DNA from: an uncultured archaeon
Lineage (GTDB): Archaea; Asgardarchaeota; Hermodarchaeia; Hermodarchaeales; Hermodarchaeaceae
Assembly (NCBI GenBank): GCA_964347045.1
Contig: CAYFXC010000010.1
Location: forward strand, 17,312 to 81,311
Reading direction: 5' to 3'
Length of the DNA: 64,000 nt
The notes below the pieces were generated by a model. That model searched no databases. It saw only the letters and a program-made list of their open reading frames with translations, and was not told the DNA's origin. Both the position numbers and the translations under genes were made by a program. This document shows positions 33,039 through 39,428 of the stretch, piece by piece; positions within the stretch are counted from its first letter, which is position 1; each line of letters opens with the position of its first letter.

Positions 33039-33950
33039 TCAAACAAAACCTAGCACCTGAGCACACATAAGAAAATATAACACGAATGAACCTACATCAC
33101 CCCACCTATCCGTAATATCGTCTACGTCATCACGTTTTGCAGGTTTACCATTCAAATATAATTGTGATATAATCTGCCGAATACCTAAATCATCAGCGGG
33201 AAAAACTTCCAGTCTTCGAAGGCCTGTTAAAACGGCCAACTCGGCGGTCCACCTACCAATCCCTCGAAGTGCATCAAGCTGGCTGAGTATAGAATTTGTA
33301 TCAAGCATACTTAGCGCTTCTAGTTTCAAAGAGCCTGAAGAAATCGCCTTAAAAAGCCCAATCAGATATGGAGCCTTATATCCAAGTTTACAAGCTCTCA
33401 ATTCTGCTTCAGATAGGTTCAACAAAGTTTCCAATGAGGGAAAGCCAAACAGTTTGTCATCGCCAATATAGCATTGCGGACCATAGTCCAGCACAAGCCT
33501 CCGAGTTACTTGATTTGCTGATCGAAAACTCACCTGCTGCTGTAAAATCGCTTTCACTATAGCCTCAAACAAAGTCGGTTGACTGAAGGGTCGAAGACCA
33601 CGTAGAGGTTCTTCGAGGTGCGCAATAACTGGATCCTTCATGATTTCTTTCAGTACAGGTTGAGTATCAATATCCCACCCTAAAAGCCATTCAATTGAAG
33701 TCAAAATTGATCCATAATCACTTCCAAATTTCGCAGGCCATTGCAACTGAAGACTTGGATTCGCTCCTTTCCGAAGCTGAATAACGCGAACAGGAATCAA
33801 CGCATTATTAATTGGTAGGCATCGAGCAAACTCCCCAGGTCGTTTTTTCTCTGGCGTAGGTTGAATATCAGAGAATACCCAACTATCCACGGTTAAATCC
33901 AAATCAAAAGGTCTTTCAAGTTCCACCTGAAACCCATGAATTTCGGACAT
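33039..33950 (-). CDS. AlkA-like DNA-3-methyladenine glycosylase (HhH-GPD)
   Basis: AILQQQVS, LRGIGRWTAE HhH, FPADDLGI. Confidence 0.9.
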   Translation of the reverse strand: MSEIHGFQVELERPFDLDLTVDSWVFSDIQPTPEKKRPGEFARCLPINNALIPVRVIQLRKGANPSLQLQWPAKFGSDYGSILTSIEWLLGWDIDTQPVLKEIMKDPVIAHLEEPLRGLRPFSQPTLFEAIVKAILQQQVSFRSANQVTRRLVLDYGPQCYIGDDKLFGFPSLETLLNLSEAELRACKLGYKAPYLIGLFKAISSGSLKLEALSMLDTNSILSQLDALRGIGRWTAELAVLTGLRRLEVFPADDLGIRQIISQLYLNGKPAKRDDVDDITDRWGDVGSFVLYFLMCAQVLGFV

Positions 33951-34121
33951 TCATCCACCGGCTTCACTGATTGCCTGAAGACATATTTTATCTTATGCTT
34001 CTCGCTTAAAAAAATGTTAAAGCACATGTTATCAGTTGTTATAGTATGTGGAACAACAGTTCACAACACTTTTAGCCTTATAGATCCAAATAGCAATAAT
34101 GTTTTTGGAAGTGAAATACAA

Positions 34122-34502
34122 ATGGCAATGCTTGGAGTTCAACGTATCATGACAGGACAAAATGTTGAAGCGAGCGACGTGATGCACTGTTTTCTTGGAT
34201 TACGTACTCTTGAAATAGACGTGTACTTCTACCTTCTTAAAGGCCAAGCTACTGTAAAAGAAGTTGCAGAAGCCCTCGGGCGTAATCGTAGTTCAATACA
34301 ACGAGCCATCCAAAACCTTGTTCAACGTGGATTTGCCCATCGCCGAACTCGTACTTTGCGCAAAGGCGGATATGTATATGTTTATGAAGCGGTCAGCTTA
34401 GTTATGATGAAGGATTTGATAAAAGGCGCCCTTGATTCATTTTATCAGCAAATCGAAGAATTTCTGGATCAATACTGGACCGAATCATCAAAAACAACCT
34501 AA
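34122..34502 (+). CDS. HTH transcriptional regulator (TrmB/MarR-like)
   Basis: CFLGL, TVKEVAEALGRNRSSIQRAIQNLVQRG, GGYVYVY. Confidence 0.85.
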   Translation: MAMLGVQRIMTGQNVEASDVMHCFLGLRTLEIDVYFYLLKGQATVKEVAEALGRNRSSIQRAIQNLVQRGFAHRRTRTLRKGGYVYVYEAVSLVMMKDLIKGALDSFYQQIEEFLDQYWTESSKTT

Positions 34503-34620
34503 TCGGTTGTTCATTGTTGTGGCACTATCGACAACTTTATATTCAAACGACTGTACACACACTTCAAGACTGTGAAAAAGAATATATTTCCTTTTACAGC
34601 ATAATAGACGGTGAAAAGAA

Positions 34621-34848
34621 ATGGCGTCAATTGGCTGCCCATTTTGTACAAAGACTGGCGTTGCTATGGTTATAACCAGCTTAGCACTTGTTCTCCTTAG
34701 CATAACGACAACCATTCCTTGGATAGCCATCTTAGGCCTAGTCTTCCTCATTGCCGCATACATCGTCCCTAGTATAGTGAGTGGAAAAAGCTGCCATGAA
34801 GAAGGCTGTACAAACCCCTCACACAAACATGGAGAGGAAAACTCATAA
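34621..34848 (+). CDS. Small 2-TM protein with CPFC and a His/Cys tail
   Basis: GCPFC, two TMs, SCHEEGCTNPSHKH; TAATG-coupled to thioredoxin. Confidence 0.75.
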   Translation: MASIGCPFCTKTGVAMVITSLALVLLSITTTIPWIAILGLVFLIAAYIVPSIVSGKSCHEEGCTNPSHKHGEENS

Positions 34849-35267
34849 TGAGCGAAACTCCCGATCCTGAACTGACCCGATTACGTGAACAAAAAATTAA
34901 GGAGTTACGAGTCAAAAGGGCAACACAATCCAAAACCCCAAACACGGCTCCAAATAAAGTACTTCACCTTTCCACCAACGATTTCGACCAAACCATCAGC
35001 AAAGGCATCACCCTAGTAGACTTCTTCGCCGTATGGTGTGGACCCTGCAAGATGATGGCCCCTGTGATTGATCAACTTGCCCAAGAATATGCTGGGCGAG
35101 CAAAGGTGGCAAAACTTGATGTTGATCAGAATATCGAAATTGCGATGCGATACCGCGTGCAAGGCGTCCCAACATTTGGTATCTTTAAGAATGGCGTGCT
35201 GGTCCACCGTATTGTTGGTGGTGTTGGCTATCAGCCTTTGAAAGCCGCTCTTGATTCATTTCTTTAG
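34848..35267 (+). CDS. trxA: Thioredoxin
   Basis: VDFFAVWCGPCK, KLDVD, VQGVPT. Confidence 0.95.
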   Translation: MSETPDPELTRLREQKIKELRVKRATQSKTPNTAPNKVLHLSTNDFDQTISKGITLVDFFAVWCGPCKMMAPVIDQLAQEYAGRAKVAKLDVDQNIEIAMRYRVQGVPTFGIFKNGVLVHRIVGGVGYQPLKAALDSFL

Positions 35268-35381
35268 GCTCTGCCAGTTAGTGAAACCTGACAGTTGACT
35301 AGACTTCGCCATTTACGGCAGTAGTAAGTTGATTGTTAGATTTTTCTTTTAAGAAAAGAAATATCATTATAAAGTACTAGT

Positions 35382-35512
35382 GAGCGACTAATTTTAGAAC
35401 ACATTCCTTCCGTGTTCAGGTGGTTCAAACTCAAGCAGCTCCGAAAATTTTTTATTGTCAATTCGGATTTTCGTGAGCTGCTGGACCACCCGAGGAATGT
35501 CTAGAGTTGCTT
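35382..35512 (+). ncRNA. Long structured RNA or 5' leader upstream of grpE
   Basis: Six nested helices (about 46 bp) whose wobbles are G-U on the plus strand. Confidence 0.55.
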
Positions 35513-35615
35513 CATGCTGACTTCAGACTATATGGGAATCGGGTAGCAGCAGCCACATTTACCTCTGCAGCATCGACGGTTTGTTGCAATAAAACCTGAA
35601 AGGAGAATTCGGTTA

Positions 35616-36278
35616 ATGACAGAAGACCCGCAAAAGATAAGCGAAGCACTAGAAATCGCAAAAGACAAGAAGCTAGCTGATGATCCAAACCCTAGGAAAA
35701 AAACACCAACCGAATCTAAAAAACCCAAGAAGCTAACTAAGAAGCAATTGTTGCAAGCCTTGGAAGAGGCGCAAACAAAAGTAGCGAAATACAAAACCCA
35801 GCTCGCTTATGTGCAAGCAGAACATGAAAATTATGTAAAATCAATGGAGCGTCGAGAAGTAAATCTCAGGCTTCAAGCGAATCGCGATTTGATTCTAACA
35901 CTATTACCAATTTTAGACGATTTAGAACGATCACAATTGATGGTTCCCCGAATTGAAGCGAATGACCCATTTATTGAAGGGCTTAGCATGCTAGTGGATA
36001 ATCTAAAATCTGCTTTAGCACAAGCAGGCGTCACACCGATCGAATGCACGGGGGAATCCTTTGACCCCTTACGTCATGAGGCTGTGGTACGCGAAGAATC
36101 CACGAAGGTTCCTCCGAATACTGTGGTAGAAGAATTGCGCAAAGGATATCTTCTCAAGGGATCCCTTTTACGACCTTCCATGGTTAAAATTGCGATTGCT
36201 CCTAATACACAACCACAAGCAGAGCAAAAGATTGAAGAGCCACAAGAATCTGCAAACAATGTATCAGAAAAGAAATAA
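35616..36278 (+). CDS. grpE: Nucleotide exchange factor GrpE
   Basis: [31 protein letters not shown]...LRPSMV. Confidence 0.95.
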
Positions 36279-36310
36279 CAATCTATGATTTAGAAAGGAG
36301 AGTTGAAAAA

Positions 36311-38215
36311 ATGGTTAAAATTATTGGAATAGATTTGGGAACGAGCAACTCAGCTGCAGCTGTGATGCGAGGAGATCGCCCTGTCATCATTCCCAGCGCT
36401 GAGGGTCCCACCGTTTCTGGGAAAGCCTTTCCCTCATATGTGGCCATCACAGATGATGGCAATCGACTTGTTGGTGAACCGGCCCGACGTCAAGCAGTAG
36501 CGAACCCTGAGGGTACAGTTACTGCTGTAAAGCGGAAAATGGGAACTCGTAAAAAGGTTAAGATTCGAGATAAAACCTTTACACCAGAAGAGGTCTCTTC
36601 ATTCATTCTTCGAAAAATAAAAACCGATGCCGAAGCGTTTCTCGGAGAACCAGTCATTCAAGCAGTTATCACTGTTCCTGCGTATTTTAATGATAACCAG
36701 CGCCAAGCGACAAAAGATGCAGGAGAACTTGCAGGTCTTGAAGTAGTTCGGCTGATCAACGAACCCACCGCTGCTTCATTAGCATATGGTATTGATAAGC
36801 TCGATAAGGATCTTCGAATCCTGGTGTTTGACCTCGGTGGTGGAACATTGGATGTGACCATCATGGAATTTGGTCCAGATCCAGAAACAGGAAGCGGGCT
36901 TTTTCAAGTAGTATCAACAGCGGGAGATACTCAACTTGGCGGAACTGACATGGATCTCGCGATTGCTGAATGGCTAGCTGATGAATTCAAAGGAGAGCAT
37001 GGCATGGATCTTCATGACGATCCCACTGCTTGGCAACGGCTCATTGAAGCCGCGGAGAAAGCTAAAATTGAGCTATCCAATGTCATTGAGACAGAAATCA
37101 ACTTGCCGTATCTGACAGCTGATAAAGGTGGACCCAAACATCTCCAACGAAAAATCACGCGAGCAAAACTAGAGGATCTTGTTCGAGATATAATTGATCG
37201 CTGTGACGGTCCTATGCGACAAGCTATCAAGGATGCCAAACTGCGACCTAACGAGGTTGATAAAATCATTCTCATTGGTGGACCTACCAGAATGCCTATT
37301 GTTCGACAATATGTCGAAAAGTTCATTGGTAAGAAAGCGGAGCGGGGCGTAGATCCAATGGAAGCAGTTGCTCTCGGTGCAGCCATTCAAGGTGGCGTAA
37401 TCACGGGCGATGTCAAAGACCTGCTTCTGTTAGATGTCACTCCACTTTCGCTTGGTGTAGAAACCAAAGGAGATATCATGACACCCATCATCGAACGCAA
37501 TACGACTATTCCTGTTGAACGTAGTCAAATCTTTAGTACAGCAGCAGATATGCAAACTGTTGTAACTATCCATGTGTTACAGGGTGAACGATCTAGGGCA
37601 AGTCAAAATATTTCACTTGGCCAATTCAATCTAACAGGAATACCACCAGCACCAATGGGTGTACCACAAATTGAAGTTACCTTTGACATTGACGTCAATG
37701 GCATTCTCCATGTTAAGGCTAAAGATCTTGGGACAGGAAATGAACAGAAAATCACCATTTCCGCTTCGACCAAATTAACTGATGAACAAAAGGACCGAAT
37801 GGTAGCAGACTCTGAAAAATATGAAGAAGAGGATAAGCGCTACCGCGAAGAAGTTGAAGAGCTTAACAAGGCAGAGTCATTGGTCTATTCCGCTCGGAAG
37901 ACGATTAAAGAACTTGGAGACAAAATCAGTGAAGAAGATAAACAGAAGGTCGAAGAAGCAGCGAACCGGTTAGAAAAAGCGGTTCAGGAAAAGGATTTAG
38001 CAACCACTAAAAAAGAGATGGAAACACTCACCGATATTCTTCAAGGTATTGGAACCGCAGTATATCAACAAGTTGCAGAGGAACAGGCTCGGGCTCAAGC
38101 ACAAGAAGGAGTTGCTGATGATTCTGATTCGGAGCCCAAGAAGAAAAAGAAGAAGAGTAAAGAGAAAGTTGTAGACGCCGATTATGAAGTTGTGGACGAC
38201 GAGGACAAGAAGTAA
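36311..38215 (+). CDS. dnaK: Chaperone DnaK
   Basis: [38 protein letters not shown]. Confidence 0.98.
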
Positions 38216-38315
38216 CTAAGATAATATTCTTGTATTCAGTAATTGGGCATATCGGTTGAGACAGAACAAATAAAAACCTAGTCTAGATTCGGTTACCCAA
38301 ATATGGTGAGCTAGC

Positions 38316-39428
38316 GTGAGTTATGGTAGCAATCAAAAACGAGATTATTACGAAGTGCTTGGTGTAGAACGGAAAGCTACCAAAGAAGAAATTAGAAAAG
38401 CGTATAGAAAGCTTGCACTGAAATTTCACCCAGATCGGAATAAAGAAGCTGATGCTGCAGAGAAATTCAAGGAAGTCTCTGAAGCCTATGCAATTCTTTC
38501 AGATGACGAAAAGCGGCTCCAGTATGACCAATTTGGGCATGCTGGGATTCACGGACGATATAGTGCTGAGGATATTTTTGGTGGGATTAATTTCGAAGAT
38601 ATTCTGCGCAGTTTTGGATTAGGTGGGAGACTTGGCGGTGTCGGTAGCATCTTCGACTTCTTAATGGGTCGAGGAGGACGAAGAACTTCACGTCGCGATC
38701 AGGCAATAGATCTGCGATATGATATGAATATTACATTAAAAGAAGCTGCGACAGGTATTGAGAAGGAAATCACGCTCAAGCGCGACGAGCAATGTCCGAA
38801 ATGTGGAGGAACAGGGGGAGAACCCGGAACACCTCTAAGAACCTGTTCCCGTTGTGGTGGGCGAGGCGAGCTTCGACAAGTCCAGCAAACCATGTTTGGA
38901 CAGGTTATTCGTGTTGCTACATGTCCGGGATGTTATGGTCATGGTCAAACGGTAGAAACGCCCTGCTCTGAGTGTAGAGGAAAAAGAACCGTTCGAGAAA
39001 AACGAAATATTCGAGTCCAAATACCACCAGGAGTTGAATCAGGTTCAATGCTTAGGCTTAGGGACCAAGGAGCGTCACAGGAAGGAGGAAAACCTGGCGA
39101 CCTTTATGTTGTTGTCCATATCAAGCCTGATAAAATCTTTCAGCGTGTAGGCGACGATATCCTGATGGAATTACCCATTTCAATAACCCAAGCTACATTA
39201 GGAACTGAACTCGAGATCCCAACTCTCCTTTCCAAAGCAAAATTAAAAATCCCTGCTGGCACCCAACCAGATACAATTCTCCGTCTAAGAGGACAAGGCA
39301 TGCCTCGTGTCCGATGGCGAGGAAATGGGGATCAATTAATTCGAATTAAGGTAGATGTTCCCAAAAAACTCAACAAACATCAGCGAGACCTTTTGGAACA
39401 ACTTGCAGATGAGCTTGACAGAGATTAG
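38316..39428 (+). CDS. dnaJ: Chaperone DnaJ
   Basis: J domain with HPD, G/F-rich region, four CxxCxGxG-type repeats. Confidence 0.97.

Follow-up and report, generated by a model that had tools for sequence, protein, structure and literature searches.

Nested candidate promoters and a covarying mRNA leader in a genus-specific control region of an Asgard grpE-dnaK-dnaJ operon

Our analysis revealed that the spacer between trx and grpE in the 64,000-nucleotide stretch of DNA examined here (the window) holds a genus-specific control region of an Asgard Hsp70 operon. The description that fits it best, and to which we give an even chance of being right, is a set of nested promoters with a covarying leader and an alternative hairpin that depends on the distal promoter, P1. 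The first-pass annotation had proposed a selected RNA structure before grpE, a rod of 131 nt (35382-35512, plus strand). The sequence before grpE is indeed selected, non-repetitive and structured, but the rod as a single unit was not supported by the comparisons described below.

All genes of the locus lie on the plus strand, and the trx-grpE spacer is 348 nt long. The genes encode a Lrs14/Sta1/TrmB-like wHTH regulator, assigned from sequence and model matches (33936-34502), a 75-aa CxxC membrane protein (34621-34848), thioredoxin (trx, 34848-35267), GrpE (35616-36278, ATG 35616-18), DnaK (36311-38215) and DnaJ (38316-39428). This order (33936-39428) is kept in the genus and in its sister genus. 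Beyond related archaea, the next-nearest proteins to GrpE are bacterial. The first ~55 called residues of the wHTH regulator align poorly to relatives, and thus its true start may be downstream. A 112-aa ORF on the minus strand (34488-34826), opposite the CxxC gene, has tblastn matches in all relatives; since it overlaps a conserved plus-strand gene, we take it for a probable shadow frame rather than a real gene. At its upstream end, the control region is bordered by a putative trx terminator on the plus strand, in which a 13-bp hairpin (35288-35338; -25.3 kcal/mol, z -2.7) is followed by a T-run (35341-35350). Related species carry differing inverted repeats at the same position at the 3' end of trx, for example GTCAGTCAACTG/CAGTTGACTGC and GACAGCCAATC/GATTGGCTGTTC, with a T-run after each. 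The terminator-like hairpin appears to covary, since the repeat sequence differs among species at this one position.

The element is present between trx and grpE in every member of the genus (Hermodarchaeota, Asgard) with an assembled spacer, which gives 13 species genomes and one metagenome variant, or 14 sequences with the window included. It is single-copy in the 2.58-Mb, 89%-complete genome, as judged by BLAST and three nhmmer profiles; the profile of the core gave a best match at E 7e-20 and a runner-up at E 0.8. A MITE or other dispersed repeat, which had been named at first pass as an outcome that would speak against a selected RNA, was rejected on this ground. Pattern scans with the invariant bases over 185,579 species genomes and the JGI metagenome set found no element outside the genus, and added one new variant (L181) to the known genus members. 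Two other scan matches were set aside, as L166 lies within a coding region and L172 is weak and partial and was treated as chance. The rod is absent from the sister genus, although the gene order is kept there.

The fold of the rod is as stable as had been supposed. The MFE fold of 35375-35520 has an energy of -52.3 kcal/mol, whereas dinucleotide shuffles of the region gave -32.4 +/- 3.8 kcal/mol (z -5.3; 0 of 200 shuffles as good). All six helices listed at first pass were found at their coordinates and in this MFE fold, and the wobbles within them are G-U on the plus strand, as claimed. The view that the rod belongs to no known RNA family also held, since an Rfam search of 34800-36000 returned only chance-level matches to microRNA and snRNA models (E 0.96 to 4.2, all far below gathering scores).

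Across the aligned species, the rod is not kept as a single unit. Among six related species, only 62% and 63% of cells were paired in helices 1 and 2, and helix 3 (35401-09/35492-500) was 83% paired, decaying via changes on its 3' strand that have no compensation. Near-invariance keeps helices 4 and 5 paired in 96% and 100% of cells, and no pair of helices 2 to 5 had changed on both sides. Several features leave the single-unit rod unsupported. The outer third of the rod is not conserved and precedes the putative P1 start; the loop is the most conserved part and reads as a BRE/TATA promoter; the rod lacks covariation, while an alternative fold of its 3' half covaries; and about 100 nt separate its end from the SD, while its stability is far above what a melting thermometer would have. 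We therefore consider, with the same even confidence as above, that the rod is the overlap of three things: a proximal promoter (P2), the leader fold of the P2 mRNA and a 5' extension added by P1.

The block TCCGAAAATTTTTTAT (35440-55) is the only one invariant in all species. In an ungapped alignment of 13 species (A1), TCCGAAA.T.TTTTAT (35440-55) is invariant at fixed spacing, TTT and TG (the latter at 35474-75) in the 3' arm are also invariant, and the 3' half of the apical loop varies freely with its spacing unchanged. We read these bases as the candidate promoter P2 (35440-35456, plus strand), with a BRE-like CCGAAAA (35441-47) and a TATA-like TTTTTTAT(T) (35448-56), which coincide with the inner 5' arm and the 5' half of the apical hairpin loop. 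Besides being conserved at fixed spacing, the box matches promoters of the same genome, namely GCAAAGGTTTTTAAC and CGAAACGGTTAAAATG before tRNAs, GCGTAAGCTTTTTATG before a thermosome gene and TTTTTATA before an hsp20 gene. This likeness was judged by eye, in direct comparison with about 15 sites; a de novo EM search of 1352 upstream regions and of the tRNA upstream regions returned only weak or irrelevant motifs. The sister genus keeps GAAAA-TATA-N10-GATTTTC without the rod, in the form GAAAAC-CTTAAAAT-N10-GATTTTCCG, and its spacing is identical to that of GAAAAT-TTTTTATT-N10-GATTTTCG here. Furthermore, P2 is the only conserved promoter-like site before grpE in the P1-less species (7 of 14). 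Promoter geometry (22-24 nt after the TATA) places the predicted P2 start at about 35475-80 on the plus strand, which is where the leader fold begins.

The apical helix itself shows no significant covariation: on A1, 92% of its cells were paired as compared with 91% in column shuffles, and 32 to 48 of 500 shuffles reached as high a count as its single compensatory pair. The TATA-like region of P2 contains a T6 run (35448-53). Archaeal RNA polymerase is known to terminate at oligo-T, and a role of the run as terminator for upstream transcripts is plausible.

The covariation that the rod lacks was found in the leader. The predicted leader fold, or S-domain (35477-35553, plus strand; -31.2 kcal/mol, z -3.0), contains three stems: S1, GCUGCUG (35477-83) with CAGCAGC (35547-53); S2, CCCGAG (35489-94) with UAUGGG (35531-36), for which the MFE fold pairs 35488-93 with 35539-44; and S3, GUCUAGAG (35499-506) with CUUCAGAC (35521-28). 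Eight species were aligned with MAFFT on sequence alone (A3); of the S1-S3 cells, 87.5% pair in this alignment, and changes on both sides occurred in 8 of the 21 pairs, five of these eight in S3. The observed value was reached by 0 of 500 shuffles on any of five measures, and pairing fell to 20-48% when the partners were slid. Compensatory change, by which a structured cis-regulatory RNA is recognized, is thus present in S1-S3; in contrast, the rod has 0-1 compensatory pairs and does not exceed its shuffles. The domain does vary among species. S1 is missing in two of the eight aligned species, three species that form a clade carry a hairpin unrelated to S3, GUAAUGCC-UUCG-GGCAUUAC, in its place, and the outer stem of the leader is built from different sequence in different species. 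A nested fold like the S-domain is nevertheless predicted in most of 13 species, and the distance from CCGAAAAT to the grpE start codon is 173-182 nt in all 13. When 13 species were aligned with MAFFT, the full leader gave a weak consensus fold (-2 kcal/mol), because the variable parts misalign. The rod uses as its 3' half the same bases that form the 5' strands of S1-S3, so that the leader fold and the rod are mutually exclusive.

The remainder of the leader (35554-35618, plus strand) contains a CCUCU block (35562-66), a hairpin (35566-72/35582-88), the SD GGAG (35602-05) and the grpE ATG. Of the two small hairpins described after the rod in the first-pass annotation, this one is predicted, whereas that at 35541-35564 is not; the latter bases are the 3' strands of the longer-range leader fold. 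An SD/anti-SD pairing with the CCUCU block was rejected, as its predicted partners are inconsistent across species; the predicted partner of the SD changes from one species to another. A K-turn and a short upstream ORF in the leader were considered by eye and dropped. In the sister genus, the shorter grpE leader also opens with a long-range stem whose sequence differs by species (CAAGCAU/AUGCUUG, CUAACA/UGUUAG, CA(A)GGC/GCCUG). The family as a whole may thus share a stem at the 5' end of its grpE mRNA.

The candidate distal promoter P1 (35353-35374, plus strand) consists of a purine-rich BRE-like tract and the TATA box TTATAAAG; the box noticed near 35367 at first pass was found at 35367-74 and is conserved. 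P1 is present in 7 of 14 species, the window included, and the other seven lack both P1 and the 5' block. In alignment A4 (the six closest species, which bear P1), the BRE/TATA of P1 has 85% mean identity, while the spacer between the TATA and the putative start (35375-35396, plus strand) has 34% mean pairwise identity and is saturated. This spacer holds the 5' strands of the two outermost helices of the rod (35382-88, 35393-97). Identity is 91-94% from G35397 to about 35495 and then 56%. The onset of the conserved block at G35397 lies exactly 30 nt after the first TATA base, a spacing that is standard archaeal geometry. The block therefore appears to begin at the P1 start, which we place provisionally at about G35397, and this exact spacing supports the two-promoter reading. 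The first 21 nt of the predicted transcript (35397-35417, plus strand) form an invariant 5' hairpin, GAACAC/GUGUUC, with loop AUUCCUUCC. The hairpin sequence occurs only at the grpE locus, in six P1-bearing genomes, and a search for it elsewhere in the P1-less genomes, as an independent gene, found none.

The inner rod (35419-35490, plus strand) probably folds in P1 transcripts, in competition with the leader fold. It comprises helix 4, GGUGGUUCA (35419-27) with UGGACCACC (35482-90), and the apical helix (35435-50 with 35465-81). RNAalifold on the seven P1-bearing sequences gave the 5' hairpin 35397-35417 and a long hairpin 35419-35490 at -38.2 kcal/mol, and the predicted full P1 transcript folds the inner rod, not S1/S2. 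In this seven-species consensus, which takes in the 5' hairpin and helices 4 and 5, ten one-sided changes keep the pair, two break it and none is compensatory; the pair-keeping changes all run via G-U or A-U on the plus strand. The 61-nt core is 94% identical among P1-bearing as compared with 68% among P1-less species, and Trx+GrpE identity is 78% within both groups. The apical hairpin has a predicted energy of -21.3 kcal/mol here (37 C), against -9 to -17 kcal/mol in P1-less species. These results suggest an RNA-level constraint tied to P1, though it does not take the form of covariation. The P1-bearing species could also be a slowly evolving clade. The Trx+GrpE species tree has no resolved backbone; it does not tell whether P1 was gained or lost, nor does it allow the events to be counted rigorously. 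Species without the 5' strand of helix 4 also conserve its 3' strand, GGACCACC, and for this reason the 5' extension looks like an addition that pairs with a pre-existing leader.

On the reading that we prefer, P2 would be the universal promoter of grpE-dnaK-dnaJ, starting at about 35475-80, and its mRNA would open with the ~75-nt nested stem domain S1-S3 (35477-35553), which would tie up the 5' end and would most likely set the stability of the mRNA or the conformation of its leader. Half of the species would gain from P1 a 5' extension, beginning at about G35397, that carries complements (GGUGGUUCA, GCAGCUC and CGAAAAU) to the region around and just after P2. A P1 read-through RNA would fold the inner rod 35419-35490 in place of S1/S2 and so give a second, promoter-dependent leader, while a P1 RNA that stopped at the T6 run would be a short RNA of about 57 nt. 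We infer the P1 and P2 starts, the use of either promoter and any heat response from the sequence.

A stronger form of this reading, which we hold only tentatively and think rather unlikely, is an RNA switch worked by promoter choice. P1 would transcribe through P2, and either the rod in cis or the ~57-nt RNA in trans would couple chaperone output to the promoter that fires. The P1 5' extension is complementary, via helix 4, to what would be the first ~15-25 nt of the P2 mRNA; the pairing of helix 3 was found only in the window genome. In trans, the ~57-nt RNA, ended at the P2 TATA/T6, might pair with the 5' end of the P2 mRNA or with the RBS of an SBP transporter gene.

The constraint in the P1-bearing species can also be read in another way. 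If transcription started only at P1, the inner rod would be a cis element of one leader of ~220 nt, serving as thermosensor, stability element or protein platform, and the TATA-like loop would be a motif at the RNA level and no promoter. The significance of the fold, the 100-nt block that is invariant from the P1 start, the much stronger constraint where P1 is present and the variable positions that mostly keep pairing via G-U on the plus strand all agree with this proposal, which continues the ~220-nt leader of the first-pass annotation. The TATA at 35367 could indeed start such a leader, but the comparisons gave no support to a single thermosensor or stability RNA that takes in all 131 nt of the rod. 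The seven P1-less species keep the core with the BRE/TATA-like bases invariant while the stems decay, the T6 run in the loop would terminate archaeal RNA polymerase, and the rod makes no contact with the SD, which follows about 110 nt later, and is too stable to melt. Moreover, the 3' half of the rod has a better-supported alternative partner and its outer helices are unconserved. We thus regard a single long leader as unlikely, at about the level of the promoter-choice switch.

Slightly less probable still is a DNA operator. The repeat (GCAGCTC, CGAAAAT / ATTTTCG, GAGCTGC) that flanks the P2 TATA would be bound by a dimeric or tetrameric repressor, for which the neighbouring Lrs14/TrmB-like wHTH protein is the candidate; TBP/TFB would be blocked until stress, and the RNA fold would be incidental. 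The repeat brackets the BRE/TATA and the predicted start and persists in 13 of 13 species, the wHTH gene is syntenic in two genera, and control of archaeal heat shock by a repressor at a palindrome is known for Phr (PMC10746257). In the P1-less species, the apical inverted repeat persists in weakened form, with a 5' arm that has no evident promoter, and this pattern fits an operator at the DNA level at least as well as an RNA fold. On the other hand, no second copy was found in the genome, the hsp20 and thermosome upstream regions included, and the arms, measured between their centres, are separated by 25 and 41 bp, an unusual layout for a simple dimer site. The sister genus retains the regulator and lacks the outer arms, and a search of PDB sequences gave no match of the regulator to Phr. 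Substitutions within the arms are biased towards transitions compatible with G-U pairing on the plus strand, although this was a hand count and is weak. A perfect 8-bp inverted repeat, GCAGGAAT-TTCAG-ATTCCTGC, was observed ~60 nt upstream of an hsp20 gene (ORF start 10039, G000:C13), directly before CTTTTATT and the SD; it could be the terminator of the upstream gene or a promoter-linked palindrome.

The least probable alternative, which we consider improbable, is that P1 makes a separate T6-ended small RNA of about 57 nt (35397 to ~35453). It would act in trans, either via its anti-SD-like loop AUUCCUUCC or via its 3' half, whose sequence is complementary to the start of the P2 mRNA. The geometry of P1 and the invariance of the 5' hairpin agree with this, and 12 nt of the loop and its flanks form an exact complement of the SD/AUG (ACGGAAGGAATG) of an SBP_bac_5 gene (G000:C2:41502-41513). 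However, the target RBS is equally conserved in P1-less species and thus gives no co-occurrence signal, an anti-SD-like loop will match some RBS by chance, and the RNA has no significant fold (z -0.6). As it stands, the complementarity to the SBP_bac_5 RBS would neither support nor exclude targeting. The product of this gene is a peptide/nickel ABC binding protein of 646 aa. Its own leader (G000:C2:41450-41520) has a conserved hairpin, GCGGC...GCCGC, before the RBS in 10 of the 11 orthologue upstream regions examined.

Asgard archaea obtained their Hsp70 system from bacteria and had to connect it anew to a transcription machinery that is archaeal and eukaryote-like. Our study delimits the control region of this locus sharply and in a testable form: a candidate universal promoter, a covarying 5' leader and an upstream candidate promoter, present in half of the genus, whose product would be complementary to the leader. 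If the model of two promoters and two folds is true, it would be a rare documented case of control by leader isoforms in archaea; if it is false, the locus would be an ordinary promoter with a palindromic operator. A true promoter-choice switch would couple chaperone output to which promoter fires.

The control region shares features with several known systems. RNA thermometers (ROSE, fourU and hsp17-type) are structured 5' leaders of heat-shock genes that pair with the SD/AUG and are marginally stable (PMC3074152). The region is like them in being a structured heat-shock 5' leader, often rich in G-U pairs and mismatches in those systems, but the rod lies far from the SD, has an energy of -52 kcal/mol and matches no Rfam thermometer model. 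We rejected a thermometer on the SD, as the rod (35382-35512) ends about 100 nt before the SD at 35602-05, with the ATG at 35616, and a melting thermometer, as the predicted energies at 37 C of the rod (-52.3 kcal/mol) and of the apical helix (-21.3 kcal/mol) are not those of marginally stable structures.

The inverted repeat directly before a bacterial-type grpE-dnaK-dnaJ operon recalls HrcA-CIRCE, and its arm GCAGCTC/GAGCTGC loosely resembles GCACTC/GAGTGC. CIRCE controls the bacterial hrcA-grpE-dnaK-dnaJ and groESL operons and works at two levels, in DNA as an operator and within the mRNA. This system was rejected, since both the sequence and the spacing of the repeat are wrong and a search for HrcA (PF01628) gave no match in any of the 19 genomes of the family, which are 72-91% complete; the positive controls responded. 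The CIRCE pattern, TTAGCACTC-N9-GAGTGCTAA, was not matched: the arms here, AAGCAGCTC and GAGCTGCTG, differ in sequence, have a spacer of 33 nt instead of 9 nt, and enclose an archaeal TATA box.

In Pyrococcus and Thermococcus, the wHTH repressor Phr silences heat-shock genes via a palindrome over the promoter or start (PMC10746257). The locus is similar in having a wHTH regulator near an archaeal heat-shock gene palindrome that overlaps a candidate promoter. In contrast to the Phr system, there is no regulon-wide motif here and the arms stand much further apart. No second site of the repeat motif turned up when the genome was searched by pattern and by profile, and no motif was shared upstream of the three hsp20 and two thermosome genes. 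The neighbouring wHTH protein matches TrmB/Lrs14/Sta1 models, with no Phr structure among its PDB sequence matches.

Bacterial mRNAs of the ompA type are stabilized by 5'-terminal stem-loops. Long regulatory 5' UTRs are also known in archaea, for example in Methanolobus psychrophilus (PMC5378194). The leader described here resembles both in that its first bases are predicted to be locked in S1, its length is fixed and it has post-transcriptional potential, but its motif is genus-specific. The region can also be compared with tandem archaeal BRE/TATA promoters, which share an A-rich BRE, a T/A-rich 8-mer, a T-rich tract near -10 and a predicted start 22-24 nt on; both P1 and P2 have these features, and both are similar to the promoters that precede tRNA, thermosome and hsp20 genes in this genome. 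Unlike such promoters, P2 lies within a conserved inverted repeat with 16-bp arms, inside the predicted P1 transcript.
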